Source of the DNA: an uncultured Candidatus Cloacimonadota bacterium
GTDB lineage: Bacteria > Cloacimonadota > Cloacimonadia > JGIOTU-2
Direction: 5' to 3'
NCBI GenBank assembly: GCA_964398885.1
Contig: CAYNOU010000005.1
Location: 301 to 64,300, forward strand
DNA length: 64,000 nucleotides
In this document: positions 9,014 to 64,000 of the stretch, one piece after another
Layout of the letters: each line of letters begins with the position of its first letter
How positions within the stretch are numbered: position 1 is the stretch's first letter
Position numbers and translations under genes: made by a program
Notes under the pieces: model-generated
The model's input: the letters and a program-made list of their open reading frames with translations, nothing else
What the model was told of the DNA's origin: nothing
Database searches by the model: none

Positions 9014-10348
9014 TTATTTAGGTTTTTCTTTATTCTTCAACTTCTCCCACCATTCAATTCTCTTTTTTATTTCTCGTTCAAAACCAATTTCTTGTGGATG
9101 GAAAATCTTCATTTCCTTCATTTTATCAGGAAAATACTTTTGATATTTGTAATGATTATCATAGTTATGTGAGTATTTATAATTTTTGCCATAATTAAGT
9201 TCCTTCATCAACTTTGTAGGAGCATTTCTTATATGCAAAGGAACCGGGAGATGACCGCTATTTTTTGCTAATTTTGCTGCTTTATCATAAGCGATGTATA
9301 CGGAGTTACTTTTTGGTGCTGAGGCAAGATAGATAACTGCTTGCGCAAGTGCATTACTACATTCTGGCATACCGATAAAGTGCACTGCATCCTTAGCAGC
9401 GTTTGCTATTTCCAGAGCTTGATTATCAGCAAGCCCTATATCTTCGGATGCAAATCTGATAAGACGTCTGACAATATATAAAGGGTCTTCACCGCTCTCA
9501 AGCATTCTTGCCAGCCAATATAAAGCCGCATCAACATCAGAACCACGCATACTTTTATGCAGAGCGGAAATAAGATTGTAATGTTCCTCTCCTTTTTTAT
9601 CGTAAAACATACTGTTTTTCTTGAGCAATTCTTTTATTTTGGGGATTGAAAGTTCTTCCTTCTCCTTTCCGAAAGCTTTGATAATCAATTCAACAGCATT
9701 AAGAGCAACTCTAGCATCTCCGCCAGCATAACTGCTCAAGTACTTTAAAATATCCTCATCAAACATTTTTCTATACTTCATTATATCGGCATTTGGATGG
9801 TCAAAGCTTCTGGAGACGATTTTATAGATGTTGTTTTCAGTTAATTTTTCCAGAATGATTACCTTACAACGAGATAGTAAAGGTGGTATGACCTCAAAAG
9901 ATGGATTTTCTGTAGTAGCGCCAATCAGAATTATTATGCCTTTTTCCACAAAAGGTAGAAATGCATCTTGCTGAGCTTTGTTAAAGCGATGGATTTCGTC
10001 AATAAAAAGAATGGTTTTTTTGTGTTTGTTAACAAGATTGTATTCTGCCTCACGCATTGCATTCCGAACCTCAGCAATTCCGGACAATACGGCACTATAA
10101 GAGACGAATTTAGCATTCGTTTTCTTTGCAATAATCTTTGCTAAAGTAGTTTTGCCAGTTCCGGGTGGTCCCCAGAAGATTGAAGAGGTGAGTTGGTCAT
10201 TCTCTATAATTTTTCGCAGGAGAGAATCATTTCTTAATATTTTCTTCTGGCCAACAAATTCGGCAAGAGATTGGGGTCGCACACGATTGGCTAAAGGGGT
10301 GTCTTTATAGTCTATTTTTCCAATTTTTGCAAATAAATCTTCTTTCAT
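9014..10348 (-). CDS. rarA: Replication-associated recombination protein A (AAA+ ATPase)
   Basis: Walker [10 protein letters not shown], Walker [17 protein letters not shown]; MgsA C-terminal domain. Confidence 0.85.
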
Positions 10349-10380: not shown

Positions 10381-11829
10381 CTAACGGAGCTGCTTACGGA
10401 ATCTGCTTACAGGGATGCCTGCTTGATTACGATATTTTGTTACTGCCCGAAGAGAAATTGAAATCCCCTTTTGCGCCAATAAATGAACTATTTTTTGGTC
10501 ACTAAGCGGAGAGGATTTATCTTCACTTTCAATAATTTTAACAATTTCCTTTTTGATGATTTGTGATGAAACATCACCAATATTACTTGTAAAAAACCAT
10601 TTTAATGAGTAAACACCCAGAGGTGTATCAATATATTTATTCTTTACAACACGACAGACCGTAGATACATCTAAATTAATTTTATCTGAAATATCTTCGT
10701 ATCTCATTGGTGTTAATTCTTTTAAACCATCTTTAAAGAATTTAGGCTGCTGCCGTACCATTTCAGCAACAATTTTATATAAAGTCTCCCTTCGCATCCA
10801 TACTGCTTTAACATAGTTTTCTGCAGATGTAATCTTGGACCTTATGTATTTTATAGTATTCTTTTTGTCATAACATTTAGAAAGCATCTGTCTAACATAT
10901 TTTTCATTAATAGCAATTTCTGGAATAAAAGCATCATTTATAATAATTTCTAATCTCTCATTAATCTTTTTTACAATGATATCCGGTAGAATATAAGATG
11001 GATTTTTTGAAGTAATTCCTCTACCTGGCTTTGGATCCAGATGGCTGATACTTTCTTTTAAAGCAAGTAATTCTTTTATAGATATATTATATTTCTTTGT
11101 TAATTTATCATATTTATGTTGTTGCATTAGATTTAAGTCATTTTTGATAATAGAAACCAAATCCTTATTTTCAAGTTGGTCCTCATCTAACTGTGCGAGA
11201 AGGCATTCAGAAAGAGTTCTTGCTCCGATACCTCTTGGATAGATTTGCATTATCATAGAATGTATTTCTTCAGCACGGGAAATAGGCATTGGAACTGTAT
11301 CAGTGAGGTCTTCAAGTGATGAATCAAGATAGCCATTTTGGTCTAAACTATTTATTATTGCATCTGCAAACTGGTGCTCATTTTTATTTAAAGGTAATTC
11401 TCTAACATTGTTATGAAACTGTTCCCAGACATTTTCCTGTTCTCTTTCATAATCTTCAAATCTATCATAATCTGGAATGGATTTATCTTTTCGTTCAATT
11501 TCAAATTGAGTGTTTCTGGCATCGCTCAAATCATTTATAATTTTACCTATCTCTTTAATTTTTTCAGATAAATCGTAATCTTCAAGATCTTCATTTTGTG
11601 AGGTTGCATCTTTTTCTTCAACTTCTTCATCTGAGATAAATTGTTCCTCAAGAGACACAGAACTTAGGTCCTTTAGGAAGGGATTACATCGGAGTTCTTC
11701 CTTTAGTGCAATTTCTAATTCCTGCATTGGTTTTTGAAGCAATTCCGCAGTGATAATCATCTGTGGCGAGAGCTTAAACTTTTGCTCAAGCTTTTGCTTA
11801 TGTCCTATTCCAATACCTAACTTTGCCAT
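10381..11829 (-). CDS. rpoN: RNA polymerase sigma-54 factor
   Basis: Acidic region; HTH ...STVCRVVKNKYIDTPLGVYSLKWFF; RpoN box SLRAVTKYRN at the C-terminus. Confidence 0.9.
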   Translation of the reverse strand: MAKLGIGIGHKQKLEQKFKLSPQMIITAELLQKPMQELEIALKEELRCNPFLKDLSSVSLEEQFISDEEVEEKDATSQNEDLEDYDLSEKIKEIGKIINDLSDARNTQFEIERKDKSIPDYDRFEDYEREQENVWEQFHNNVRELPLNKNEHQFADAIINSLDQNGYLDSSLEDLTDTVPMPISRAEEIHSMIMQIYPRGIGARTLSECLLAQLDEDQLENKDLVSIIKNDLNLMQQHKYDKLTKKYNISIKELLALKESISHLDPKPGRGITSKNPSYILPDIIVKKINERLEIIINDAFIPEIAINEKYVRQMLSKCYDKKNTIKYIRSKITSAENYVKAVWMRRETLYKIVAEMVRQQPKFFKDGLKELTPMRYEDISDKINLDVSTVCRVVKNKYIDTPLGVYSLKWFFTSNIGDVSSQIIKKEIVKIIESEDKSSPLSDQKIVHLLAQKGISISLRAVTKYRNQAGIPVSRFRKQLR

Positions 11830-12039: not shown

Positions 12040-12320
12040 TTTTACAGAGTCGTCACGGACCATCTTGTCAGGTCGTAGCTTTAGCGAAGACTGATCCGTG
12101 ACGAACACCCCAATTGCTCTTTTCAACAAAATTTGATTTCTGCCATCGTCAGGGAGTGGTCCCTGACGGCTCCTTTTAAGCCTGGACTTCACTACCAGCT
12201 TGCTGGTGTGGAGTTCAGAGCGATATTTACAAAAAGTCTTCATACTGAACTCCATCTCCCCGATTGGATCGGGGATCAAATCGTGATGAAGTCCAGCCTG
12301 AGGGAAAATGCCTTTTAAAT
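12040..12320. repeat. Cluster of REP-like palindromes including an inverted pair of RAYT-family units
   Basis: GGACTTCAC-TACCAGCTTGCTGGT-GTGGAGTTCAG and its inverted copy CTGAACTCCATCTCCCCGATTGGATCGGGGAT...GAAGTCCAG; plus 10-bp stems TCGTCACGGA/TCCGTGACGA and CGTCAGGGA/TCCCTGACG. Confidence 0.6.
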
Positions 12321-12445: not shown

Positions 12446-14149
12446 TCACTCCTTTTTCTGTTGAGATGCATTCAGCACTTCACGGACTTTTCGTTCCAGA
12501 ACATCAGGTGTCATTGGTTTCTGGATAAATGCTGTTCCTGGCTCCAAAATGCCGCGGTCAATAACCTCCTTGCCTGTGTAGCCAGACATAAAGAGCACCT
12601 TCATATCTGGTCGCAAGGGTTTCAATTGTTTGACCAACTCCCTACCACTCATTTTGGGCATTACTACATCTGTTATTATCAAATGGATTGGTTCCTTATG
12701 CTGTTTGCAGATTGAAATTGCCTCACTGCCTAAACCAGCGGTCAAGACAGTGTATCCACTCGTCTCTAATACCTCGCAAATCAAATCTTGAATCATCTGT
12801 TCGTCATCCACAACTAGGATAGTCTCTGAGGCTTGTGGCAGTACAGGAGCCTTGCCAGGTTTATGTGATTCTATGGTCTCCTCTATTCTGGGTAGGAATG
12901 TCTTAAAAGTTGTCCCCTTTCCTGGCTCGCTGTATACCCAGATACTGCCATCACATTGCTTAACGATACCATAGATAGTAGAAAGGCCCAAGCCTGTTCC
13001 TTTGCCTACTTCCTTGGTTGTAAAGAAAGGCTCAAAGATACGGGATTGTGTTTCTTCATCCATTCCACATCCAGTATCGCTTACAGACAGCATTACATAG
13101 GGACCGGCCTGAACTTCTACATGGTGGCTGGCATAATCCTCATCTAAATCAACATTGGCTGTCTCTATGGAAATCTTGCCACCCTTGGGCATTGCATCAC
13201 GGGAGTTAACTACTAAATTCACAATAATTTGACTGACCTGGCCTGCATCCGCCTTTATCTGCCCTAATGTTGGACTTAATGTAGTGACAAGCTCTATATC
13301 TTCGCCAATCAAACGATGGAGCATCTTTTCCATATCAGTTACTATAGCATTGAGGTCCAATACCTTAAGTTTAAGTACTTTCTTACGGCTAAATGTTAGG
13401 AGTTGTCCTGTGAGTGCACTAGCCCTTTCTGCAGCCTTCATAATCTCTTTAGGGTATTTACTCAAAGGGTCAAGCTCGCCAAGTTTATTCAACAGGAGTT
13501 CACTATATCCCGTGATAGCTGTCAACAGGTTGTTGAAGTCGTGTGCCATCCCACCTGCAAGTCTTCCGACTGCTTCCATCTTCTGGGATTGACGAAGTTG
13601 CGATTCGCTTTTGAGTAAAGCCTCCTGCGTCTGCTTTCGTTCAGTAATATCCCTACCAATACCATGAATACCAATTATTTTGCCATTATTATCCTTTATT
13701 GGCCTTAGCTTCAGCCAGCATATCCTTTTCTTATCATTCTTTGTTATAACTGCAGTTTCATACTCAACAGGCTCTCCAGAAACAGCCTTTTGATAATGCT
13801 CAACTGATTTCTTTCTATCTTCTGGAGCAATAAGATAAAGTGACTGTTTATTGATTAATTCTTTTTTTGTATATCCCAGTAATTTTTCAAAAAGGTGGTT
13901 TACAGTTAGATATCTTCCTTTGACATCAGAGGTCCAGATAATATCGTTAGCATTTTCAAATAGGTCACGGAATTTCTCCTCACTTTTATGAAGTGCCTCC
14001 TCTGCTCTTTTACGCTCTGTAATGTCTTTAAGTGATATGACTATACTGGGTTCTTCTTCTTCTTCTTCTTCTTCTTCTTCTGCAAAAAGTATTCTTGCCA
14101 TATCAAAATGCAAGATAAGTTCGTCTATACTGTTTGAATCATTTTCCAT
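12446..14149 (-). CDS. Hybrid PAS sensor histidine kinase with C-terminal receiver domain
   Basis: PAS (DITERK end motifs), His[14 protein letters not shown], HATPase [26 protein letters not shown]...[11 protein letters not shown]; poly-Glu tract near the N-terminus. Confidence 0.85.
14051..14080. repeat. (TTC)10 / (GAA)10 trinucleotide microsatellite encoding E10 inside the kinase gene
   Basis: Perfect 10x TTC run on the plus strand. Confidence 0.9.
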
Positions 14150-14151
14150 AA

Positions 14152-15069
14152 TTATCCTCCAAGTCTATTAGCCTTTGGTAGCTCACCAAAAATCTTCTTA
14201 AAATTTTTAAGAAATTTCCTTTCTAATAAAATGCGGTTCCCAGTAAGACAAAAACGCACAAATATATCATAGTTATTGGTAAATTCATTTAGGCGATTAT
14301 TTTTTAATTTATTACCTGAGTAATTTACTATTCGCCTTCGCAGGTTTTTTGAAGAACCGATATATATAATATTAGTTCTATAAAATGGATATTCAATTTT
14401 TGAGGTAATGCTGAGTTCATAAACTCCAGATTCAGTTGGAATTCTGCTAAAATATCTTTTTGATAACAGGATGTAATCGCTAAAGGCTATATCCTTTTCG
14501 TAATAAGAAGCCTTTTCTCTATAGTTAGGGATATTAAGCAATTTTCTACAATTACATATCGTTCTAACTGACAAATGCACTCCCTTTTGGGCTAACAGGT
14601 ATTGAATATCTTTATCTCTCAAGGCTTTTTCATCCCGATATACCCGTTCTCCGTAGTCCCGATGAAATCGGGGCAGGGGGTGAATCGGGACTATTTCTCT
14701 AATGAGATATGAGTAATATTTTCTGCTTGATATAAATAGACTTCTAAGACAGACAATCTGATTTTGAGGATTCATAACAGATAAATTTTGAATTAACCTG
14801 GAAAGTCGGGTTTTCTCAAGATATTGTAATGGATATATAGATAGGAACTTACTTAAGGTCAACGGCTTTATGTCCACCTCCCTACCAGAAAACCAATATT
14901 TACGCTGGTAATGAAGAAGACTCTTTAAAATATGTCGGGAGAATTTATTCCGTGTGTTAATCCATTTCAATGAACATATTATCTTATTTCCAATAAAATT
15001 TTGAGTGGAATAGATATTTTCTAAACGACTATCTGAAACCTCATAGCAAAGATTTTCATTCTTAATCAT
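14152..15069 (-). CDS. Fusion protein: sigma-54 C-terminal DNA-binding domain (HTH plus RpoN-box-like) fused to a C-terminal GIY-YIG nuclease domain
   Basis: YQRKYWFSG..KPLTLSKFLS..TRLSRLIQN..IVCLRSLF aligns with RpoN QQPKFFKDG..LTPMRYEDIS..STVCRVVKN..VYSLKWFF; LLAQKGVHLSVRTICNCRK aligns with RpoN box LLAQKGISISLRAVTKYRN; GIY-YIG motifs GVYEL...IIYIGSSKNLRRRIVNY...E...N. Confidence 0.6.
   Translation of the reverse strand: MIKNENLCYEVSDSRLENIYSTQNFIGNKIICSLKWINTRNKFSRHILKSLLHYQRKYWFSGREVDIKPLTLSKFLSIYPLQYLEKTRLSRLIQNLSVMNPQNQIVCLRSLFISSRKYYSYLIREIVPIHPLPRFHRDYGERVYRDEKALRDKDIQYLLAQKGVHLSVRTICNCRKLLNIPNYREKASYYEKDIAFSDYILLSKRYFSRIPTESGVYELSITSKIEYPFYRTNIIYIGSSKNLRRRIVNYSGNKLKNNRLNEFTNNYDIFVRFCLTGNRILLERKFLKNFKKIFGELPKANRLGG
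14633..14694. repeat. GC-rich palindromic repeat (CCCGATATA family) in-frame inside CDS 14152..15069
   Basis: TCCCGATATACCCG...AGTCCCGATGAAATCGGGGCAGGGGGTGAATCGGGACT; encodes IVPIHPLPRFHRDYGERVYRD between the HTH and the RpoN-box-like segments. Confidence 0.55.
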
Positions 15070-15257
15070 TATTTTAGCATAAAAGATTTTTTTTTGGCAG
15101 AGTCATAAGTTAATGCCGTAGGTTGAATGACCAACGGTATAAAAGAAGGCTTTATTAATCCTTTTGTTGTATTATCAATATATGTGAGATACTTTGACAA
15201 AGGCATCTCCAATACTTTAGAGAAGATTATTTTACTTATTTTTTGCTTATTTATCAT
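15069..15257 (-). CDS. Hypothetical small protein
   Basis: 62-aa ORF wedged between two genes, no recognisable motif. Confidence 0.2.
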   Translation of the reverse strand: MINKQKISKIIFSKVLEMPLSKYLTYIDNTTKGLIKPSFIPLVIQPTALTYDSAKKKSFMLK

Positions 15258-18200
15258 ATTTTTTTAGAAATCCTGATTTCTGTATGATCCTTCTTGAGTA
15301 TCTTATTCTTTATCTGTTCAGTAATTATTTTCTTAAGTTCAGATTCAGTATAGTTTAGCTTAGCCGCGTATTTTTGAATAATATCCTGGAATGCCTTATT
15401 TTCTCTAAATAGGTTCAGTTTATCAGTAAATACTAATAGGCTATCAGGCACAAATTTGAAAATATTTTCTATCGTATCTCTAAAGTGTTTCTCACTTTCC
15501 CTTCGTGCTTCTTCTGCTCGTTTGCGCTCAATAGCAATAGCAATTTGGTCTGAGGCAAATTCTAAAATCTCTAAATCTTTTTCATTATAGAGAGAAGCAT
15601 CAGTATAACTTTGAACAGCTATAACACCGATAATTTTTTTCTCTATTTTCAGAGGTATGCCAAGCCAGAGAGCAGATGATGAACCGAGTAGTTCTACTTC
15701 ACCTTTTTCTTCAAGTTTATTGAGAGAGTCCTCGGTAACGAAGATGGCTTTGCCGGTTCGCATAACATATTCTGTAAGCCCTTTTCTCGGTTTTCTGGGA
15801 GTAGGCTGGCTATCCTTTTCATCAACAAAGTAGGGAAAGGACATTAATTCTTTATCTTCATCGTAAAGTGCAATATAAAAGTTGGCAGTATCTATAACTG
15901 TGCTTAGATGCTGATGGATTGTTTGATAGAGTTCATCAAGGTTAGCAGTTGTGTTTATTGCATCAGAAATTTTATAGATTGCGGATTGCAATTTTTCAGC
16001 TTGTTTGCGCTCGGTGATGTCGCGAAATATACCTTGAAGCACTTTTTTATTCTTAAGTTCAATGATACTGGCTTTAATTGCAACCTCTTTGATTTCTCCC
16101 TTTTTGGTAATAACCTGTGTTTCCAGAACCTGCCCTTCTTTTTCCTTGAGGTGTTGTTTGAAAGTCCTGCTAAATTCTCCTTTGATTTCTTCTGGAGGAT
16201 GGAGAATCCGCTGGTGTTTACCAACAAATTCTGATTTCTCCCTGCCGACCAACTCTAATGATGCACGGTTACAGTCAATCAATATACCTGTTTCAGCATC
16301 AGCGATGACGATAGCGTCAAGTGAATCCTCAAACTGCTTTCTGTATTTTTCTTCAGATTTTTTAAGAGATTCTTCCATCCGCTTTCGCTTTATAGCCAGT
16401 GCAATTTCGTCAGAAACAAATTCTAAAATCGCTAAATCTTTTTTTGTATAAAGAGAAGCATCAGTATAACTTTGAACAACAACTACACCAATTACTTCAT
16501 TCTCTATTTTTAATGGAATTCCAAGCCAGATTTTTGAAGGGGTTCCAATCACCTCTACCTCTCCAGCTTGAATTAACTTCTCGCTAACCTCTTCAGTGGC
16601 AAGAAGTGATTTACCTATCTTTATTACATAAGCAGTTAATGTCTTTCCTGCTGGAAAAGTAGTAAATCTATCTTTTTCGTCAACATCATAGGGAAGCGCA
16701 ATAGTATCAGTTTCTTTATCATATAATGCTACATAATAATTTGTTGTATCAATAATTGTACTAAGTTGCTTGTGTATTATTTTGAAAAGTTCATCAAGGT
16801 CTTTAGAGGTATTTACAGCATCTGCAATATTATATAAAACTGATTGGATTTGCTCAGCTCTTTTACGGTCTGTGATATCCCTGGTAACTCCTCTGTATCC
16901 CAGCAAATTTCCTTTATCATCAAGTAAAGGAACAGCATTTGTTTCAAGAGAAACTATATGCCCATCTTTATGCACATTTTGACTTACCAGGTTTTTAACT
17001 TTTTCTTTCTCTTTAGAGCTTTCAAGTGCAGTTTTTTTAAATTTATCCTGCTCATCAGGAAGAGCGAGGTCATAGAAATGCTTACCCAACATTTCCTGAT
17101 ATTCATAACCAAGAACTTGCTTAACAATAGGACTGCTGTAAGTATAGCGTCCCTGGGCATCAGTTTCCCAGATCCAGTCACCAGTATTAGCTACGATATT
17201 TTGAAATCTCTCTTGAGATTCTCGTAATGCTTTTTCTTTTTCTGCAGTATCTTCAAGAATACTAAGCAATGATTTTCTGTTTTCTTCTGAGTCTTTATAT
17301 AGTTCTTCAATTTTCTCTTTGTCAGAAATAATTTGTTCTGTTTTTTTCTTTAGTTCATCCTCTACTTGATTCGCCTCGGTGATGTCTTCGTAGGTGGTTA
17401 TGTATTGTTTTCTTCCTTTTAGTGTTATTGAGATTCCTGAAATAGAAACTGGGATTTTCTTGCCATCCTTACTCTTCCTAACTGTTTCATGATAAAAGTA
17501 TCCTTCCTCTGCCCTCTCATTGAGATCCTCGGCTTCCTCCATCATTCCTTTGGGAACAACAACATCATCAATATTTTTTCCTTTTATCTCATCTAATTCA
17601 TACCCAAAGAGTTCTTTAAAATTGGAATTTATATCTAAAATTCGGAGGTTCTCGTCTATGTAAACTTGTGGTGCTGGATTCTTTTTGAATAGAGTCTTGA
17701 ATTTTTCCTCGCTCTCCCGTAGCGTATCCTCCGCTCGCTTGCGCTCGGTGATGTCCAAAATCTGAGCCATTGTCTTTACTTTTCCCGCTGAATCTTTGGT
17801 CACAGTAGAGCTGATTTCCACACGCCTCTTCTCACCGTCGTTCCGCATAATGTTTGACTCGTAACGGGGTGGAACCATCTCACCCCTCTGCCTTCTGATG
17901 TACCGATCTACAAGTAGTTGCTTGCTCTCTTCGTCGAGGAATTTGCGGAAATTCTGACCAATAATTTCCTCACGAGAATACCTGAAGGTTCGGCACAGTT
18001 CGTCGTTTACGTAGAGTAACCGATAGGCGTCATCCACAATAACTATTCCGTCGTGAGAATGTTCCACGATGGAACGGAACCGTTCTTCGCTTTCTCGCAG
18101 CGCCTTCTCCACCTGTTTGCGTTCTATAGCAATCGCAATCTCCTTGGAAACAAATTCTAAAATTTCTAAATCCTTTTCAGTATATAGAGAAGCATTAGTA

Positions 18201-19507
18201 TAACTTTGAACAGCCAAAGCACCAATAACCTTATTTTTAGTTTTAAGAGGCACGCCTATCCAAATCTTACTTTTCCAATCAGCTTGAGCAATTTTACCCT
18301 CTTTCATTAATTTTTCTCGCTTTTCTATAGTTAAATAAAGATGCTTTGCAGTATGAATTACATAGGCAGTTAATCCATTTTTTAATTGTTGTGGTTGTGG
18401 AATATTTTTTTTCAATTGGTCAACATAATAGGGTGCAGTTATTATATTGCTCTTTTCATCATATAGAGCGACATAAAAATTTGTTGTGTCCACAATTGTT
18501 CCAAGTTGTTTATGAATTAATTGATAGAGTTCATCAAGATCTTTAGTGGTATTTACAGCTTCGGCAATATTATAAAGAACTGATTGGACCTGCTCTGCTT
18601 GCTTACGTTCGGTGATGTCATCTATAACAGTAACAACCCGAACTACTTTGTTATTCTCTAAAATAGGTATTTTTCTGGTTTCTGTGGTAATTACTTTTCC
18701 AGCCAACTCATTTGTTTCAACAGTTATAAGCATTTTTCCAGTTTTAAAAACCTTTTGATATTCTTCACGAACAGCATCTGGCAAGAAAGGAAAGATATCA
18801 AAAATATTTCGACCGATTAAATTTTTTGTCTCAAGACCCAATTCTTTGTTCCATTGTTTGAAGGTTTCGTTAAAAAGGAGGATAGATAAATTCTCATCAA
18901 CAACATGAATAGCTTTGCCAATGGAGTCAATCGTTGAGTGGTATTGTTGTTCTGAATGTTTTAGCAGATCTTCTGTTTCCTTTCTAATCTGTATTTCCTT
19001 TTTAATGTTATCATGCGCCAAACAGGCATCTATTGCAATGCTCAACTTTTCTGAGAGACTGAGAAGCATATTGGCTAAAGTTTCATTAACAATTTCCTTA
19101 TTTGTATAAACCAGTTTAATTATTGCAACATTTTTTACAGGAACAATTAATATTGATTGTTCTTTTCCTGTTATTTTAAAACAGTATTGAAAGAAATCCT
19201 TATCGTCTCTGTTTTTTATTACGGGTCGTTGGTTTTCCCATATTTTTTCAAAAATATCTTGAAGAGAACTGACCCTTTTTTTAATATCTGCTTTAGTTAA
19301 TAATGAACCTGCTCTTGCGCCTAATTTGATATTCTCACCCTCTTTTTCACGAAGCCAGATACTTCCTCTTTGAGCATTTGTTTTATGGACAGTTGTATGA
19401 ATAACATCGTGAAGCATTTCTGAAAGGTTCAAACTGTTACCAATGGCAAGTGCACATTCGTAAGAAATGCTAAGTTTTTGAATGACAGATGTATTTTGTT
19501 TCTCCAT
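15254..19507 (-). CDS. Giant multi-PAS/GAF sensor protein with no recognisable output domain
   Basis: 1417 aa; N-terminal GAF, three PAS-GAF modules each opening ITERKQAEQ.QSVLYNIA.AVNT.KDLDEL, plus further PAS domains; no HisKA, HATPase, GGDEF, EAL or HD-GYP. Confidence 0.8.
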   Translation of the reverse strand: MEKQNTSVIQKLSISYECALAIGNSLNLSEMLHDVIHTTVHKTNAQRGSIWLREKEGENIKLGARAGSLLTKADIKKRVSSLQDIFEKIWENQRPVIKNRDDKDFFQYCFKITGKEQSILIVPVKNVAIIKLVYTNKEIVNETLANMLLSLSEKLSIAIDACLAHDNIKKEIQIRKETEDLLKHSEQQYHSTIDSIGKAIHVVDENLSILLFNETFKQWNKELGLETKNLIGRNIFDIFPFLPDAVREEYQKVFKTGKMLITVETNELAGKVITTETRKIPILENNKVVRVVTVIDDITERKQAEQVQSVLYNIAEAVNTTKDLDELYQLIHKQLGTIVDTTNFYVALYDEKSNIITAPYYVDQLKKNIPQPQQLKNGLTAYVIHTAKHLYLTIEKREKLMKEGKIAQADWKSKIWIGVPLKTKNKVIGALAVQSYTNASLYTEKDLEILEFVSKEIAIAIERKQVEKALRESEERFRSIVEHSHDGIVIVDDAYRLLYVNDELCRTFRYSREEIIGQNFRKFLDEESKQLLVDRYIRRQRGEMVPPRYESNIMRNDGEKRRVEISSTVTKDSAGKVKTMAQILDITERKRAEDTLRESEEKFKTLFKKNPAPQVYIDENLRILDINSNFKELFGYELDEIKGKNIDDVVVPKGMMEEAEDLNERAEEGYFYHETVRKSKDGKKIPVSISGISITLKGRKQYITTYEDITEANQVEDELKKKTEQIISDKEKIEELYKDSEENRKSLLSILEDTAEKEKALRESQERFQNIVANTGDWIWETDAQGRYTYSSPIVKQVLGYEYQEMLGKHFYDLALPDEQDKFKKTALESSKEKEKVKNLVSQNVHKDGHIVSLETNAVPLLDDKGNLLGYRGVTRDITDRKRAEQIQSVLYNIADAVNTSKDLDELFKIIHKQLSTIIDTTNYYVALYDKETDTIALPYDVDEKDRFTTFPAGKTLTAYVIKIGKSLLATEEVSEKLIQAGEVEVIGTPSKIWLGIPLKIENEVIGVVVVQSYTDASLYTKKDLAILEFVSDEIALAIKRKRMEESLKKSEEKYRKQFEDSLDAIVIADAETGILIDCNRASLELVGREKSEFVGKHQRILHPPEEIKGEFSRTFKQHLKEKEGQVLETQVITKKGEIKEVAIKASIIELKNKKVLQGIFRDITERKQAEKLQSAIYKISDAINTTANLDELYQTIHQHLSTVIDTANFYIALYDEDKELMSFPYFVDEKDSQPTPRKPRKGLTEYVMRTGKAIFVTEDSLNKLEEKGEVELLGSSSALWLGIPLKIEKKIIGVIAVQSYTDASLYNEKDLEILEFASDQIAIAIERKRAEEARRESEKHFRDTIENIFKFVPDSLLVFTDKLNLFRENKAFQDIIQKYAAKLNYTESELKKIITEQIKNKILKKDHTEIRISKKI

Positions 19508-19552
19508 TATTTATTCTCCCATTCCTATCCGTTCAGGCTCGGCCCGTCTAGG

Positions 19553-19590
19553 CTCCCGATATACCCCCGATTAAATCGGGGGGAGACTGG
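19553..19590. repeat. GC-rich hairpin (CCCGATATA family)
   Basis: CTCCCGATATACCCCCGATTAAATCGGGGGGAG. Confidence 0.5.
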
Positions 19591-20759: not shown

Positions 20760-21119
20760 TCAATTTTCAATTGATTTCCTTGCAGTCTTCCTGGATGAGA
20801 TAAAAATTGCTGTTAATTCTTCCGCTTCCTTTAACAAGGATTCAACAAGTTCCTTTTTCCGTAGTTTTTCCTCAATGATAAACTCCAGCCAAAAATACGA
20901 CTCATCTACTTCTTCTATTACAATACTCAATTTTGAAATGAAGCTTGCTCTGGATTGAGCAACACAAGAAGCTCTATAATTTGAAGCAACAGATGTTGCA
21001 GATCGTATTAATTGCCCCTTGATATGATTACTTAAATATGTATTGGGTAATGACATTGTAAGCTTAACACAGCGATGCGCAAACGCCTTTGTTCTCTGCA
21101 TTAATTCTTTCTTATCCAT
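20760..21119 (-). CDS. Four-helix-bundle protein (TIGR02436 / Avd-like, formerly the 23S rRNA intervening-sequence protein family)
   Basis: Characteristic pattern ...LPNTYLSNHIKGQLIRSATSVASNYRASCVAQSRASFISKLSIVIEEVDESYFWLEF. Confidence 0.75.
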   Translation of the reverse strand: MDKKELMQRTKAFAHRCVKLTMSLPNTYLSNHIKGQLIRSATSVASNYRASCVAQSRASFISKLSIVIEEVDESYFWLEFIIEEKLRKKELVESLLKEAEELTAIFISSRKTARKSIEN

Positions 21120-21160
21120 GATTAATTTGTTATCTTTTATCTTCGATTTCTAATTTTTAA

Positions 21161-21207
21161 TTGACAATCGTCAATAGTAAATTGTCAATAGTAAATTGTC
21201 AATAGTT
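21161..21207. promoter_or_regulatory. Inverted array of three TATTGACA iterons upstream of the four-helix-bundle gene
   Basis: TTGACAATCGTCAATAGTAAATTGTCAATAGTAAATTGTCAATAG, the reverse complement of the iteron in the array at 20712. Confidence 0.5.
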
Positions 21208-21211
21208 TGTT

Positions 21212-21695
21212 TACACTCCATATTTCCTTTTTTCACTGAGTCGTCCTAAAAGTTTATTTATTTCTTCTTTTAATTCAATAACACGGGATTCTCTATTCTT
21301 AGTAATATTATAATAAAGTTGAAGTTCACTCATTTTTTCTTGCAATTTTTTATTTGCTTGTTTTCTTTCTGTGATATCTCTGCCAAAACTAACGGTTCCA
21401 ATAACTTTTCCATTTTTATAAAATAGTAATATCCTATACCAATATTTTTTAAAGCTTGTGCTTCTCCTTTAATGTAGTCCAATTTTTGTGATAATTCTAA
21501 AGCTTGATTGCCGTATTCTACTGCTTTTTGGGGTGATTCGTTCCAGTAGGCTTTTCCTAATTCATTTAAAATATCAACCTTTTCTATACCGGTAGCTTTT
21601 TCCAACTGCGACTCAAGACTGTCTATTTTCGTTTGAGAAAACAGAAGATTGCTATAAATAAAGAAAATAAATAAAATAATTAAATACTTTTTCAT
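21212..21695 (-). pseudogene. Decayed TPR-PAS sensor gene (signal peptide plus TPR N-terminus joined out of frame to the last strand of a PAS domain and a coiled-coil tail)
   Basis: ORF 21330..21695 encodes signal peptide + TPR; a +2 frame from ~21425 reads [62 protein letters not shown]; the tail is paralogous to the C-terminus of 22518..24035. Confidence 0.5.
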
Positions 21696-21721
21696 ATTAA
21701 CAATACACTAATTAGGCCTTA

Positions 21722-21836
21722 AGACTCATCAGACTGGACTTCACACCGATTCATCGGGGTGGAGTTCAGGATGCTCTTTCGTCTCGAGTCCAGTCTCGCT
21801 GTCGCTCCTCTGAACTCGAGTCTTCATTCTAAGAGG
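21722..21836. repeat. REP-like repeat (left flank of RAYT)
   Basis: CTTAAGACTCATCAGACTGGACTTCACACCGATTCATCGGGGTGGAGTTCAGGATGC...GAGTCCAGTCTCGCTGTCGCTCCTCTGAACTCGAGTCTTCATTC. Confidence 0.6.
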
Positions 21837-22399
21837 AGTTCAGCAAACTCTTTCTCCTTGAGATATTTCTTATAACATTTTATTTGCTGTTTATATAATG
21901 TAGCATTTCCAAAATATATTTTCAGCAATTCATCATTAAATAAGATATCATTTCTTTTACCTATCCATTCAAGATAATTAGAATATTTCCAATCCGAAAG
22001 ATTATCCACTAATCCTGCTTTTTTAGGATTATAATGAATATACTGGCAGAGAGAAATTATATAATTTTCTTTTTTTATTCTCTTATGTTGTAAAGGTCCT
22101 TGGTATAAACGTCCTTTTCTTACATATTTACTATTGTAATGTTGCACATAAGAGTTATTTAAGTCATTGAAAATTTGATAAATAGGTTTGTCATCGTCTT
22201 GTCGTAGAAGAAAATGAAAATGATTTGGCATCAAGCAGTATGCAAAAACAGAAGCAGGATAAGCAATAATTTTTGGTTTGAATTTATCCAAAAAATATGA
22301 ATAATCATCATCACTTACGAAAAGCAATGTATTATTTATAGAATGATTATAAAGATGGAAATACTCTCCTTTTATAAATTTTTCTTTTTTACATCGCAT
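21824..22399 (-). CDS. tnpA: REP-associated tyrosine transposase (RAYT, IS200-like Y1 transposase)
   Basis: HuH motif PNHFHFLL; catalytic Tyr region CQYIHYNPKKAG; 191 aa. Confidence 0.8.
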   Translation of the reverse strand: MRCKKEKFIKGEYFHLYNHSINNTLLFVSDDDYSYFLDKFKPKIIAYPASVFAYCLMPNHFHFLLRQDDDKPIYQIFNDLNNSYVQHYNSKYVRKGRLYQGPLQHKRIKKENYIISLCQYIHYNPKKAGLVDNLSDWKYSNYLEWIGKRNDILFNDELLKIYFGNATLYKQQIKCYKKYLKEKEFAELLLE

Positions 22400-22402
22400 A
22401 GT

Positions 22403-22515
22403 TTTTATTCTTCCTTAAGCAGACTAGACTTCACGCCGAATTTATTCGGAGTGGAGTTCAGAATGCGAACATTCCGACTCAAGTCCAGCGTCGCTACGCT
22501 CCTCTGGACTTGAGT
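22403..22515. repeat. REP-like repeat (right flank of RAYT)
   Basis: CTTAAGCAGACTAGACTTCACGCCGAATTTATTCGGAGTGGAGTTCAGAATGC...CAAGTCCAGCGTCGCTACGCTCCTCTGGACTTGAGTCTTCATTC. Confidence 0.6.
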
Positions 22516-22517
22516 CT

Positions 22518-24035
22518 TCATTCAACCACTTTATACTTTGCCTCTTTACCCAATTTCTCAAGAAGTTCATTTACCTCCTTTTTCAGTTCAATCATTCTTA
22601 ATTCTCTTCCAATAGCTAATTTGTTGAAAGCTTCCAATTCTTCATTTTTCTTTTTAAGTGCTTCTTCTATTTGCTTGCGCTCAACGACTGCGGAAAACTC
22701 TGTTGCTACTGCTTTGCCAATATTAATATCATCCTGGCTCCAGTTGTGTACTTTGTCATCATGAAGATAGAGAACGCCATTAATATTACCATTAGAATTT
22801 ATACAAGGTATAATAAGATAAGCAATCAATTTTGCTTTTTGCCATTTTTCTTTATATTTTTCGTACCAATATTTTTCACGCACATCATTAACTACAGAAA
22901 TTTCTTTTTTTTCATACGCAGCCTTTGTATCTTCTCCTCGTTTAGTAATTGGAATAAGCGATTCAATACCCGGGAAGTTTTCTCTTTCATCTGAAATTTG
23001 CCAATCCTTTTTTGAATCAACTTTTGCTCTAAATACGACACGGGGGAGATTTAGCCCAATTCTAATAGCTTTTAAAGCGATTAAAATAGCTTTTTTAAAA
23101 TCAGGTTCAAGAAGACTTAGAACTACATCTTGTAAAATTTTTCTGTTGCGTAGTTCTTGTTTCAAAGATTTTTCAATGTTTTTCAAAAGAGTAATATCAC
23201 GCTGTGTTCCCCAACAGCGGATTAGAGAGCCATTTTCAATAATTCCGATTAGATTATTGAGATACACATGAATTATTCCTTTAATATCAGGTTCATGGGA
23301 TTCTCCATCAATAAGCCGAAAGTCACTGTGGATAAAGTTTTTTAGGTATTCAATATTTCTTTTATCAGTAGGAACAAGAAGATTTTCCAGCTTGGTTCCT
23401 ATTATATCTTCTCTCTTTTTAAATCCATACATTTGTGCCATCATATTGTTGCATTCAACAAGAGTTCCAGTAGCATAGATTTGTTCTATAATCTCATCTT
23501 CGTCAAGGTCAATAGGAATTGGCTCGGCAGATTCAAAACACCAGATACCTTCTGAGCTGCTCTGTATAAATGCACGATAGCGTTCCTCGCTTCTTTTTAA
23601 CTTTTCAGCAGATATTTTTTGTTTCTGCTCTATTTTCCATTGAGTTAGTGCTTTTTTTATTACATCAGGGATTATTTCAAGGTATCTCCCCAAAGGGTCT
23701 TTTACTATGTAATCCTGGGCGCCTAATTTGATTGCCTCTGCAGCGATAGATTCGTTCCCAGAGGCTGCTACAAAAACAACTGGGACATTTAGTTTGTTCT
23801 TCTTTATCTCTTTTAAAAGTTCAAGGCCATTCTCATCTGGGAGTTTATAATCAATTAGAACTATATCAAATGAGGCGGAGCAAAGATGTTGGATTGCATC
23901 TTTTCCTTGCTTTACCCAAAGTATTTTGCAGTCAAGCTCACTCTTGTCCAATGCTCTATTCATAGCAATGTAATCATGTTTGATATCTTCAACAAAAAGG
24001 ATTTTTAACTTTTTTTTCATAATTTTTTCTCCCAT
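22518..24035 (-). CDS. Response regulator (N-terminal receiver) with PAS/GAF-like sensory domains and a C-terminal coiled coil
   Basis: REC: KILFVEDIKHDY...DIVLIDYKLPDENG...VVFVAASGN; PAS end motif TQRDITLLK; no DNA-binding or enzymatic output recognised. Confidence 0.75.
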   Translation of the reverse strand: MGEKIMKKKLKILFVEDIKHDYIAMNRALDKSELDCKILWVKQGKDAIQHLCSASFDIVLIDYKLPDENGLELLKEIKKNKLNVPVVFVAASGNESIAAEAIKLGAQDYIVKDPLGRYLEIIPDVIKKALTQWKIEQKQKISAEKLKRSEERYRAFIQSSSEGIWCFESAEPIPIDLDEDEIIEQIYATGTLVECNNMMAQMYGFKKREDIIGTKLENLLVPTDKRNIEYLKNFIHSDFRLIDGESHEPDIKGIIHVYLNNLIGIIENGSLIRCWGTQRDITLLKNIEKSLKQELRNRKILQDVVLSLLEPDFKKAILIALKAIRIGLNLPRVVFRAKVDSKKDWQISDERENFPGIESLIPITKRGEDTKAAYEKKEISVVNDVREKYWYEKYKEKWQKAKLIAYLIIPCINSNGNINGVLYLHDDKVHNWSQDDINIGKAVATEFSAVVERKQIEEALKKKNEELEAFNKLAIGRELRMIELKKEVNELLEKLGKEAKYKVVE

Positions 24036-24134
24036 ATTTTTATTATTTTTCTCACTGAGTCCACAGGGATAATCGGCGATGTAGAGAGGGATGTATTTTC
24101 ATTTCATTTTTGGTTATCTTTTATAATCAATCTT

Positions 24135-24575
24135 TTATGGCAATTCAGACATTGTCCAGTATATTTGAATCTCACGAATGGCGTTTGAGAAATTTTCAAA
24201 ATCCACAGGTTTTTGGATAAAAGTATTGCAGCCGAGTTGATAGCTTCTGATGCGGTCAATTTCTTCTTTTGAGGTTGTAAGCATAATCACTGGAATTGAC
24301 TTAAGTTGTGGATCTTTTTTGAGAATACCGAGGCATTCAACACCATCCATTATGGGCATTCTTATATCCATTAGTATGATGCCTGGTCTTGGAAATTTTT
24401 CAGAATCAGAGTATTTACCTTTATGGCGGAGAAATTGAAGACATGCCTCACCATGAGGGACTACGAAAAGAGAATTTGTGATTTTATGAAGTTTCCAAGC
24501 CCGTTTAACAAAAATAACATCATGCTTATTGTCTTCAACGAGGAGAACAGGGAAATCTTTCCATATATTACTCAT
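24135..24575 (-). CDS. Single-domain response regulator (CheY-like receiver)
   Basis: VLLVEDNKHD...ILMDIRMPIMDG...VIMLTTS receiver motifs; 146 aa. Confidence 0.8.
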   Translation of the reverse strand: MSNIWKDFPVLLVEDNKHDVIFVKRAWKLHKITNSLFVVPHGEACLQFLRHKGKYSDSEKFPRPGIILMDIRMPIMDGVECLGILKKDPQLKSIPVIMLTTSKEEIDRIRSYQLGCNTFIQKPVDFENFSNAIREIQIYWTMSELP

Positions 24576-31870: not shown

Positions 31871-31912
31871 TCATACCTCATTACCAAGCCCCAGCTTGGT
31901 AATGTAATGTTA
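31871..31912. repeat. 42-bp palindromic repeat (CCAAGCCCCAGCTTGG family), copy 1
   Basis: TCATACCTCATTACCAAGCCCCAGCTTGGTAATGTAATGTTA. Confidence 0.7.
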
Positions 31913-32076: not shown

Positions 32077-32301
32077 TCAACCTTCTTGCCATATAAGGAA
32101 CATTGTCATCAATATAATTTTCTCATACCTCATTACCAAGCCCCAGCTTGGTAATGTAATGTTAAGATTATTTTCTAAATCAAATTCAAGTTCTGCTACT
32201 TCGTTCTTGGATCTTTTTGATCTTCTTGCCTGATAGAATGATATTAATAGATTATCCCAAACATATATCTTTGAATACAAATATCCTATTCTCTTTGGCA
32301 T
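32077..32301 (-). pseudogene. DGR reverse transcriptase truncated to its first ~50 aa by insertion of the palindromic repeat
   Basis: WDNLLISFYQARRSKRSKNEVAELEFDLENNL matches the DGR RT N-terminus (as in Bordetella phage Brt WENLLDAYRKTSHGKRRTWGYLEFKEYDLANLL); the ORF then runs into the repeat TLPSWGLVM and stops. Confidence 0.7.
32122..32163. repeat. 42-bp palindromic repeat, copy 2 (identical to 31871..31912)
   Basis: Exact second copy 255 bp from the first, inside the RT remnant. Confidence 0.7.
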
Positions 32302-42477: not shown

Positions 42478-42754
42478 ATTTTTATAAATCTGCTTGTCAC
42501 AAAATAGCTTATATTTGTAAGAGAATAAGTATTTAAGTCATTTTGTTCTTTTCTTGAAAAAGGCCTATCCTGTTTGTGATAACAATGTTGTTTTGTGCTA
42601 AACTTGAACTATAGGGTGTTCGATTAGGTATGGCGTGAATGCCTTCATTGCAGTTGGACTCATAAAATATCTATAAGGATTCCCATTATTGAGATACAGT
42701 TCAAACAAATTGTTACACGGCAAGGACAGGTCTTTTTTATTGAAAGGATGAAAA

Positions 42755-63459: not shown

Positions 63460-63743
63460 TTTTCCTCATTTATGATTATTTCTGTTTTAGGTTCTTTTGA
63501 TTCTGTAAGCCATTTAAACAATTTATCTGGACCTCCGCTTGAAAAAAATTTCACAAGCAAGATAACAATGATTAAGATAATAATCCTGAGCAATAATTTC
63601 CAGAAAGAAGACAGTTCTTTATTTCGTCTTTCTCTCCTTCTTTTCCACTCGTCGCCAAATTCTGAATGTTTCATATGAAAATCTCTTTCACCACAAAGGT
63701 CACAAAGAGCACAAAGAAAATAAATATACACTCTCATTCCCAA
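63456..63743 (-). CDS. Hypothetical small membrane protein whose 5-prime end overlaps the tandem repeat array
   Basis: 95 aa; the start region is encoded by the repeat unit (HMKHS); C-terminal TM. Confidence 0.25.
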   Translation of the reverse strand: MGMRVYIYFLCALCDLCGERDFHMKHSEFGDEWKRRRERRNKELSSFWKLLLRIIILIIVILLVKFFSSGGPDKLFKWLTESKEPKTEIIINEEK

Positions 63744-64000
63744 GCCCCAGCTTGGGAATGCTTACATGTCATTTTCATACTCCTTTGCCTGCCCCGTTAA
63801 ATTTCTTTCTATTTAATGAGGTGTCCCGATTTGTTTTCGGGACATGTAGGTTTCATATGAAAATCGTTGTTAATATTATATGGAGTAGTTCCGATATATC
63901 GGAACTGAATTCGGCAAGAGACTTGCCGACCCCAAATCAAATATAATTTTTATTCTCCTTTGCGTCCCCGAGGCATCGGGAACATGAATGTTTCATATGA
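63660..64000. repeat. Tandem array (at least 3 units, truncated by the window end) of ~140-180-bp degenerate repeats, each ending in TTTCATATGA and containing GC-rich hairpins
   Basis: GAATGTTTCATATGAAAATC at 63664-63683, GTTTCATATGAAAATC at 63846, GAATGTTTCATATGA at 63986; internal hairpins CCCAAGCCCCAGCTTGGG, GTCCCGATTTGTTTTCGGGAC, GTTCCGATATATCGGAAC, GTCCCCGAGGCATCGGGAAC. Confidence 0.5.

Follow-up and report, generated by a model that had tools for sequence, protein, structure and literature searches.

The 64,000-nt window analysed here (contig CAYNOU010000005.1 of assembly GCA_964398885.1, positions 301 to 64,300) belongs to an uncultured bacterium of the Cloacimonadota, an uncultured phylum that is often found in anaerobic digesters. 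At 34% G+C the window is AT-rich, and it contains one gene, at 21824..22399 on the minus strand, for a protein related to the REP-associated tyrosine transposases (RAYTs), where REP stands for repetitive extragenic palindromic sequence. Systems of REPs and RAYTs are known in detail from Proteobacteria, with surveys also covering some other phyla. The gene lies between two equally oriented G+C-rich stretches, each a repeat unit resembling a bacterial interspersed mosaic element (BIME). The upstream unit covers 22420..22523 (plus strand, 104 nt) and the downstream unit 21730..21829 (plus strand, 100 nt). Outside the units lie a sensor gene (22518..24035, minus strand) and a sensor pseudogene (21212..21695, minus strand). 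The locus had been singled out in an earlier reading made from the letters alone, referred to below as the sequence-only reading.

The RAYT gene and its flanking repeat units

The open reading frame (ORF) at 21824..22399 is intact and encodes 191 amino acids with the motifs PNHFHFLL and QYIHYNP, as the sequence-only reading had stated in naming an HUH motif and a catalytic tyrosine region. Residues H60, H62 and Y120 do not vary in 32 homologues, and the HUH motif and single tyrosine of the Y1 arrangement are present. The second Y of YIHYNP does vary, and Y120 is therefore the likely catalytic tyrosine.

The protein passes the Pfam Y1_Tnp threshold weakly (25.4 bits with a cut-off of 23 bits). 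The sole NCBIfam match is REP_Tyr_transpos (NF047646, the equivalog 'REP-associated tyrosine transposase'), with 64.2 bits and an E-value of 1.1e-17 over model positions 8-146 of 146. Judged by these sequence scores, the RAYT model fits the protein better than the general IS200-like model. The only protein of the PDB matched in sequence is TnpAREP of E. coli (4ER8). An AlphaFold model built on the 32 homologues (mean predicted local distance difference test, pLDDT, 91.6) was used for a fold search, and 4ER8_A came out on top with an E-value of 7.3e-10 and template modelling (TM) scores of 0.64/0.73 over 164 columns, covering the whole chain. The IS200, IS608, ISDra2 and Sulfolobus TnpA proteins trail with E-values of about 1e-5 and TM scores of about 0.44; the best match of IS200 type has an E-value of 8.5e-6 and TM scores of 0.43/0.60. 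The modelled fold, C-terminal extension included, is thus nearer to TnpAREP than to IS200-type TnpA. The hidden Markov model (HMM) search, the PDB sequence search and the fold search agree in this placement, in line with the earlier suggestion of a RAYT rather than an ordinary IS200 TnpA, for which a grouping against TnpA_REP and IS200 proteins had been proposed as a check.

A protein search gave 380 relatives at E <= 0.001, and the named matches are nearly all from metagenome-assembled genomes (MAGs) of Cloacimonadota (Cloacimonetes). The relatives listed from a metagenome scan (L127-L206) are distant, at most 49% identical, and were not used further. All seven orthologues compared are 576 nt long, and the pairwise ratios of nonsynonymous to synonymous substitution rates (dN/dS) lie between 0.1 and 0.26. 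Purifying selection acts on this intact gene, and since the ratios are low across species they indicate long-term conservation at the level of the host. One copy was found in the 64-kb window and one in each related locus fetched (up to 20 kb).

The two flanking units are direct repeats, identical in 85 of 105 aligned columns (81%), and a BLAST search of the window with one unit returned the other at an E-value of 8e-19. The sequence-only reading had seen them as direct repeats of 115 bp with about 85% identity; the direct orientation stands, with the lengths and the identity corrected to the values given here. The fold of the upstream unit has z values of -6.7 on the plus and -5.5 on the minus strand. 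Each unit starts with the minus-strand codons GAA TGA, the last codon and stop common to the sensor gene and the RAYT gene, so that the upstream unit begins at the end of the sensor gene and the downstream unit at the end of the RAYT gene.

Read in the sense of the RAYT gene, a unit consists of a first hairpin (H1), a short spacer and a second hairpin (H2), both imperfect. H1 has the structure GACTCRAGTYCAG, a loop of 15-16 nt and CTGGACTYGAGWC, and sets in 1-2 nt past the stop codon. H2 reads CTGAACTCCAC, a variable palindrome and GTGAAGTCCAG, which on the plus strand corresponds to CTGGACTTCAC, the palindrome and GTGGAGTTCAG. The upstream unit contains H2 at 22424-22461 (plus strand, CTAGACTTCAC-GCCGAATTTATTCGGA-GTGGAGTTCAG; inner stem p=0.007 against shuffles) and H1 at 22476-22516, where the arms 22476-22488 and 22504-22516 are 100% complementary and form a perfect 13-bp palindrome. 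In the downstream unit H2 is found at 21734-21769 (plus strand, CTGGACTTCAC-ACCGATTCATCGGG-GTGGAGTTCAG) and H1 at 21781-21822 (minus strand, GACTCGAGTTCAG-16 nt-CTGGACTCGAGAC), with its onset 2 nt past the RAYT stop. The module recognised earlier, GGACTTCAC-palindrome-GTGGAGTTCAG, does occur in both units: at 21734-21769 and, allowing for a single mismatch, at 22424-22461.

H1 and H2 take their arms from one core, TGGASTTCA, which pairs with its own second copy by means of two G·T pairs. The strand of H2 with the G·T pairs is the plus strand of the window, antisense to the RAYT gene. On this strand the downstream H2 folds into an uninterrupted outer stem of 11 bp and an inner stem; on the minus strand the outer stem is interrupted by two A·C mismatches. 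The asymmetry is conserved between species, the G·T pairs of H2 always being on one strand. H1 has the opposite polarity, with the G·T pairs on the sense strand of the gene in most copies (judged from the downstream copy and the orthologues). The two hairpins closest to the RAYT gene, H2 upstream and H1 downstream, are therefore of opposite polarity even though the units of about 100 nt are direct repeats. As read from the sequences, the stem of most H2 copies can be extended beneath a 2-nt internal mismatch (GCA-GA-...-AA-TGC).

No GT[AG]G is found at the foot of either hairpin. The feet of H2 are CAGA/CTGG.. on the plus and GCATT/CTGA.. on the minus strand and that of H1 is TGAA/GACTC.. (the slash marks the foot), and the GTGG within H2 reads ATGG or CTGG in other species. 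Hairpins of the H1 type are also found 3' of RAYT or sensor stop codons in the related loci L068, L121, L123 and L207. A half-site candidate, GAGGAGTTCAG, at 21833-21843 inside the 3' end of the RAYT gene was taken as a coincidence, because the encoded ..ELL.. C-terminus is kept in L126 despite the different flank hairpins of that locus.

Dispersed copies of the repeats and co-variation with the RAYT

The module is also found away from the gene. An inverted pair of H2 modules, similar to a REP doublet forming a hairpin (REPIN), occupies 12182..12296 with two modules head to head, 12182-12218 (plus strand) and 12245-12296 (minus strand), separated by a 26-nt spacer and with fold z values of -4.8 and -5.9. 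An inverted pair had been reported at 12160-12310 in the sequence-only reading and is thus real. It is intergenic, situated between the genes for a hybrid histidine kinase (12446..14149, minus strand) and an rpoN-like protein (10381..11829, minus strand), 9.5 kb from the RAYT gene, and no RAYT or transposase adjoins it. With one mismatch allowed per arm, four modules were found in the window and none in 30 Markov shuffles; with two mismatches per arm no additional module locus appeared in the window. The RpoN homologues of L212-L214 (95% and 77% identity) were compared for an empty site of this doublet, and they have differing DNA upstream of the rpoN promoter with no readable insertion boundary or target site.

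A scan of 185,579 species-representative genomes with the loose pattern GACTTCAY..TGGAGTTCAG gave at least 120 loci, and most of those listed are chance matches in other phyla. Among the matches listed there are 12 Cloacimonadota loci from eight MAGs, and the longer form CTGGACTTCAY..RTGGAGTTCAG was found in 15 of 15 Cloacimonadota matches versus 2 of 109 elsewhere (about one expected by chance). The sole RAYT-bearing locus of the 12 is L068 (Ca. Celaenobacter antarcticus). The remaining 11, each examined over 5-8 kb, contain singlets, inverted pairs or units of H2 and H1 without a RAYT, and the REPIN-like doublet architecture is seen again in L098. The absence of the repeats from the rest of the genome, which had been named beforehand as evidence against a RAYT system, is contradicted by the doublet at 12182-12296, and the repeats also occur in these 11 loci of other Cloacimonadota genomes. 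The inner palindromes vary between copies, yet in 14 of 30 unique modules they form significantly more stable folds than shuffled sequences, and the variation can therefore be described as compensatory change. No Rfam family matches the repeat units, and a scan of viral contigs gave 0 matches.

The RAYT orthologues of L207 (88% identity), L068, L121, L123 and L209 (66%) have the same modules on either side, invariably antisense to the gene and in many cases as two or three units in tandem. In L126 (62%) and L211 (54%) the flank hairpins differ, with the direct layout unchanged. The flank repeat specific to the locus reappears at other intergenic sites within 10 kb in L121, L209 and L211. The flank repeat and the RAYT lineage thus co-vary, as has been described for Proteobacteria (PMC2817692; PMC6006769). 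L121 and L122, from different samples, are identical in the RAYT protein and in the DNA upstream, and the downstream difference is exactly one unit of 97 nt, which suggests a recent gain or loss of a unit.

Two other sets of palindromes were seen in the window. The intergenic G+C-rich segments 14640-14690 and 19540-19590 have CCCGATATACCC in common, followed by a CCCGAT..ATCGGGG hairpin that is like the inner palindromes of H2 and lacks the H2 outer arms. A second, unrelated palindromic family (..ATTACCAAGCCCCAGCTTGGTAAT..) is found at 31871-31912, 32123-32164 and 63727-63768; the first two, at a distance of 252 nt, match at 100% and the copy at 63.7 kb is 67% identical.

The genes beside the RAYT

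The sensor gene upstream of the RAYT gene (22518..24035) encodes receiver, PAS and GAF domains and a tail ending in ..GRELRMIELKKEVNELLEKLGKEAKYKVVE before the stop at which the repeat unit starts. Downstream, an N-terminal part of TPR type (21420-21695) joins, in another frame, the last strand of a PAS domain and a tail (21212-~21420), and the frameshifted fusion is the reason for regarding 21212-21695 as a pseudogene. The tails, ..GRELRMIELKKEVNELL..KYKVVE and ..NRESRVIELKEEINKLL..KYGV, each followed by the stop, are identical at 23 of 54 positions over about 50 amino acids and are the only two in the window. Outside the tail the two genes are unrelated, with receiver-PAS-GAF and TPR N-terminal parts, respectively. 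The sequence-only reading had taken them for paralogous sensors with a similar tail; the tail and the pseudogene hold, with the likeness confined to the tail.

The RAYT orthologue lies directly 3' of a tail-bearing sensor gene in L068, L207 and L126 (62-88% identical), and in L121 the next gene downstream of the RAYT gene carries another tail. In addition, L121 has a stop-interrupted remnant of a sensor tail at 9700-9803 (..DRELKMIELKKEINELLEKS, a stop, KEAIYEIAE and a second stop), directly upstream of the RAYT repeat units; a 51-nt stretch of the remnant is 86% identical at the DNA level to the tail of the sensor that lies downstream of this RAYT. The N-terminal architectures of the tail-bearing sensors next to RAYT orthologues all differ. 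The closest relative, L207, shares the order RAYT-FIST-large sensor with 85-89% amino acid identity, has a different upstream sensor and lacks both the sensor pseudogene and the gene of the 23S rRNA-intervening sequence protein (IVP) family described below.

Since a tail-bearing sensor, or in L121 its remnant, precedes the RAYT gene in four related genomes, the position looks inherited and not recent. The earlier proposal of a cassette landing in two paralogous sensors in tandem is not borne out by such a position or by genes that share a tail only. The simplest reading is that the RAYT gene holds an inherited position beside tail-bearing sensors in a neighbourhood that is readily rearranged. 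It is possible that the RAYT causes the rearrangements. The comparison with related genomes that had been called for does show a variable neighbourhood, the pseudogene and the IVP gene being absent from L207, and nothing in it ties the RAYT to rearrangement. A general linkage of sensor tails and RAYTs was considered and rejected, as the tail-like mini-ORFs of other metagenomes (L215-L220) have no Y1_Tnp gene nearby. The linkage is therefore specific to the clade and is best explained by inheritance.

These tail-like ORFs, of the GRELRMIELKKEVNELL type, are 69-94 amino acids long (L216-L219, gene at ~850-1160; L215, 5001-5252; L220, 5001-5210). One setting is directly upstream of a KaiC-like ATPase and two KaiB genes, another the end of a split CheB/CheR-PAS gene and a third next to a cluster of small ORFs with an integrase. 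The sensor tail may be an independent small module with a function of its own.

The IVP-family gene, at 20760-21119 on the minus strand, encodes 119 amino acids (PF05635, 53 bits) and, together with the sensor pseudogene, is missing from the syntenic RAYT-FIST interval of L207. Between its start and the stop of the pseudogene, at 21166-21206, a 14-nt unit, AATTGTCAATAGTA, is repeated in tandem (2.9 copies, 96% matching). TTGACA-like boxes occur in the array, which may serve as a promoter or operator. Further away, the gene for a 1417-aa PAS/GAF sensor (15254-19507, minus strand) has an internal triplication with repeats of about 180-200 nt that are 68-76% identical and have start-to-start spacings of about 860 and 1740 nt. 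The sole Rfam family above threshold in the window is 6S (SsrS) RNA at 42559-42736 on the plus strand (RF00013, 72.7 bits, gathering threshold 46.4).

The locus as a probable REPtron

The locus is probably, at roughly 80%, a REPtron, that is, one vertically inherited RAYT gene of TnpA_REP type with its own repeats on both sides. The direct basis for this is the family and fold of the protein, the integrity of the gene and the purifying selection on it, the architecture of the repeats, their dispersal without the gene, their co-variation with the RAYT and the conserved position. Several points weigh on the other side. There are just three repeat loci within the window, and high repetitiveness is thus unsupported. 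The NF047646 score of 64 bits is below the curated cut-off of 80 bits. The REPs are not canonical, as neither hairpin has GT[AG]G at its foot. Direct-repeat flanking units are also what the ends of IS200/IS605 elements look like, and the one-unit polymorphism of L121 and L122 is compatible with assembly collapse or unequal recombination. The case is made from sequence and predicted structure.

The binding, the strand cut, the cleavage site and the present-day activity of the RAYT protein are inferred by analogy with E. coli TnpAREP and the TnpA of IS608. Like these, the protein would act on single-stranded DNA, such as that at replication forks, and bind the hairpins folded there. It would read the conserved irregularities of the stem, namely the two G·T pairs in the outer stem of H2 (10-11 bp) and usually the 2-nt internal mismatch below, and would cut near the foot of the hairpin and rejoin the ends. 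Cutting and rejoining could multiply, delete or move REP units and give rise to singlets, inverted doublets (REPINs) and tandem arrays, with the RAYT gene itself remaining in place. A further-reaching version is unlikely. According to it, the clade carries a REPtron that is still active, with an undescribed type of REP in which TGGASTTCA is found in both stem arms, has opposite polarity in H1 and H2 and stays identical down to about 66% RAYT identity. This REPtron would be attached to the 3' end of tail-bearing sensors, where it may promote the gain and loss of units and the reshuffling and decay of sensors, as in the pseudogene, the tail remnant of L121 and the polymorphism of L121 and L122.

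The alternative that survives best, although unlikely, is that the hairpins are mainly elements of RNA or transcription (3' stabilisers of mRNA, attenuators or terminators) or protein-binding sites, kept by selection on expression, and that the RAYT is adjacent by chance. The onset of H1 1-2 nt after both sensor and RAYT stop codons agrees with this, a transcript would have G·U pairs at the G·T positions, and REPs affect mRNA stability in other bacteria (background in PMC3733652). The interval from the sensor to the RAYT gene has no conspicuous sigma-70-like promoter, which makes read-through plausible. The strand asymmetry of H2 fits a G·U-containing RNA as well as recognition of single-stranded DNA, but the strand in question is antisense to all three neighbouring genes. 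The repeat units match nothing in Rfam, and the region 21000-24300 contains 0 intrinsic terminators and no terminator-like T-run, so that the hairpins are not classical terminators. The occurrence of the modules in both orientations, single, in inverted pairs or in tandem arrays, also speaks against a role in expression, and a change of flank hairpins with the RAYT lineage is left unexplained by an RNA role alone. The two roles are compatible rather than exclusive. For H1 a secondary role as a 3' hairpin of mRNA is plausible, because it sets in right after stop codons and lacks a T-run, and no promoter is evident ahead of the RAYT gene.

Slightly less probable still is an autonomous insertion sequence (IS) of IS200/IS605 type, in which the units of about 100 nt would be the ends and the 191-aa protein the transposase of a mobile element of about 800 bp, inserted fairly recently between the sensors. 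The common orientation of the hairpin units is like that of IS200/IS605 ends, the Pfam Y1_Tnp threshold is passed, and the wider neighbourhood differs among L121, L123, L126, L209 and L211. However, neither the 64 kb nor any related locus fetched holds more than one copy, and HMM, PDB sequence and fold comparisons put the protein nearer to TnpAREP. The motifs of IS200 subclass 1.1, DH[VI]H and Y[IV]ENQ (PMC6006769), do not fit, the tyrosine motif here being YIHYNP, and the protein has 191 amino acids compared with about 130-150. In the synteny with L207 the RAYT has diverged to a similar degree as the neighbouring genes, and its low dN/dS across species indicates conservation by the host. The dispersal of hairpin modules without the gene is also unexpected for such an element. 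Finally, an intergenic hairpin region could have been duplicated locally as a segment that brackets the gene by chance and belongs to no wider family. This would agree with the three repeat loci in the window and is very improbable, given the module at 12182-12296, in 11 RAYT-less Cloacimonadota loci and beside RAYT orthologues in at least five other genomes.

Taken as a REPtron, the locus is closest to that of yafM (TnpAREP) in E. coli, which is flanked by BIME-2 units of Y and Z2 REPs (PMC2817692; PMC6006769). Both have a single HUH/Y1 gene with composite two-hairpin units on either side and copies of the hairpins at other intergenic sites, and 4ER8 is the best match to the protein, in structure and in sequence, among solved structures. 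RAYT-flanking REPs were found in inverted orientation by Nunvar 2010 (PMC2817692); the units of about 100 nt here are direct repeats, and the opposite polarity of the hairpins nearest to the RAYT resembles the Y and Z2 REPs around yafM. The differences are a host in the Cloacimonadota instead of the Proteobacteria, an identity of 16% to TnpAREP in the structural alignment, an HUH motif of NHFH instead of DHLH and a length of 191 instead of 165 amino acids. The E. coli REPs differ in having the GT[AG]G foot that is missing here, where an outer stem formed by a wobble palindrome (TGGASTTCA in both arms) surrounds a variable inner palindrome.

A RAYT that is single in the window and under purifying selection, a REP type that co-varies with the lineage and an inverted doublet away from the gene (here 12182-12296) are shared with the REPIN-RAYT system of Pseudomonas fluorescens SBW25 (Bertels and Rainey 2011, PMC3116915; RAYT groups in PMC5581495). 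The REPINs of SBW25 number in hundreds. The units beside the gene here are composites of H1 and H2 or tandem arrays and not symmetrical REPINs. By motifs and length, the protein fits class 2 of the TnpA_Y1 proteins, the TnpA_REP class (NH[IFV]H, YIH.NP, 179-199 amino acids), except that Y or F takes the place of W in the W[QE] motif (G.L[YF]). Candidate subclasses are 2.4, 2.6 and 2.8, known from Bacteroidetes, Cyanobacteria and other phyla (Quentin et al. 2018, PMC6006769). Atypical flank structures are already known for subclass 2.6 of Bacteroidetes and for class 3 (PMC6006769). With IS200/IS605 elements such as IS608 and ISDra2 the locus has in common the HUH/Y1 fold, flanks in direct orientation and imperfect hairpins of the kind recognised on one strand. 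It differs from them in the longer protein with a RAYT-type C-terminal part and Y motif, in the lack of tnpB, in the hairpins dispersed without the gene and in showing no sign of multiple copies in the window or the related loci.

In the literature searched, REP/RAYT systems are not mentioned for Cloacimonadota. The system would be an ordinary REPtron in a phylum for which that literature describes none, with an atypical REP that lacks GT[AG]G and is built on a wobble-palindromic core. It does not overturn the current understanding of REP/RAYT systems. For annotation, it means that the gene should be named RAYT and not IS200 transposase. The hairpin units account for G+C-rich intergenic islands in the genome, may break contigs in MAGs of this kind and flag a neighbourhood that is locally unstable. 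The strand-asymmetric hairpins without GTAG would make a useful additional test case for how RAYTs read their substrates.

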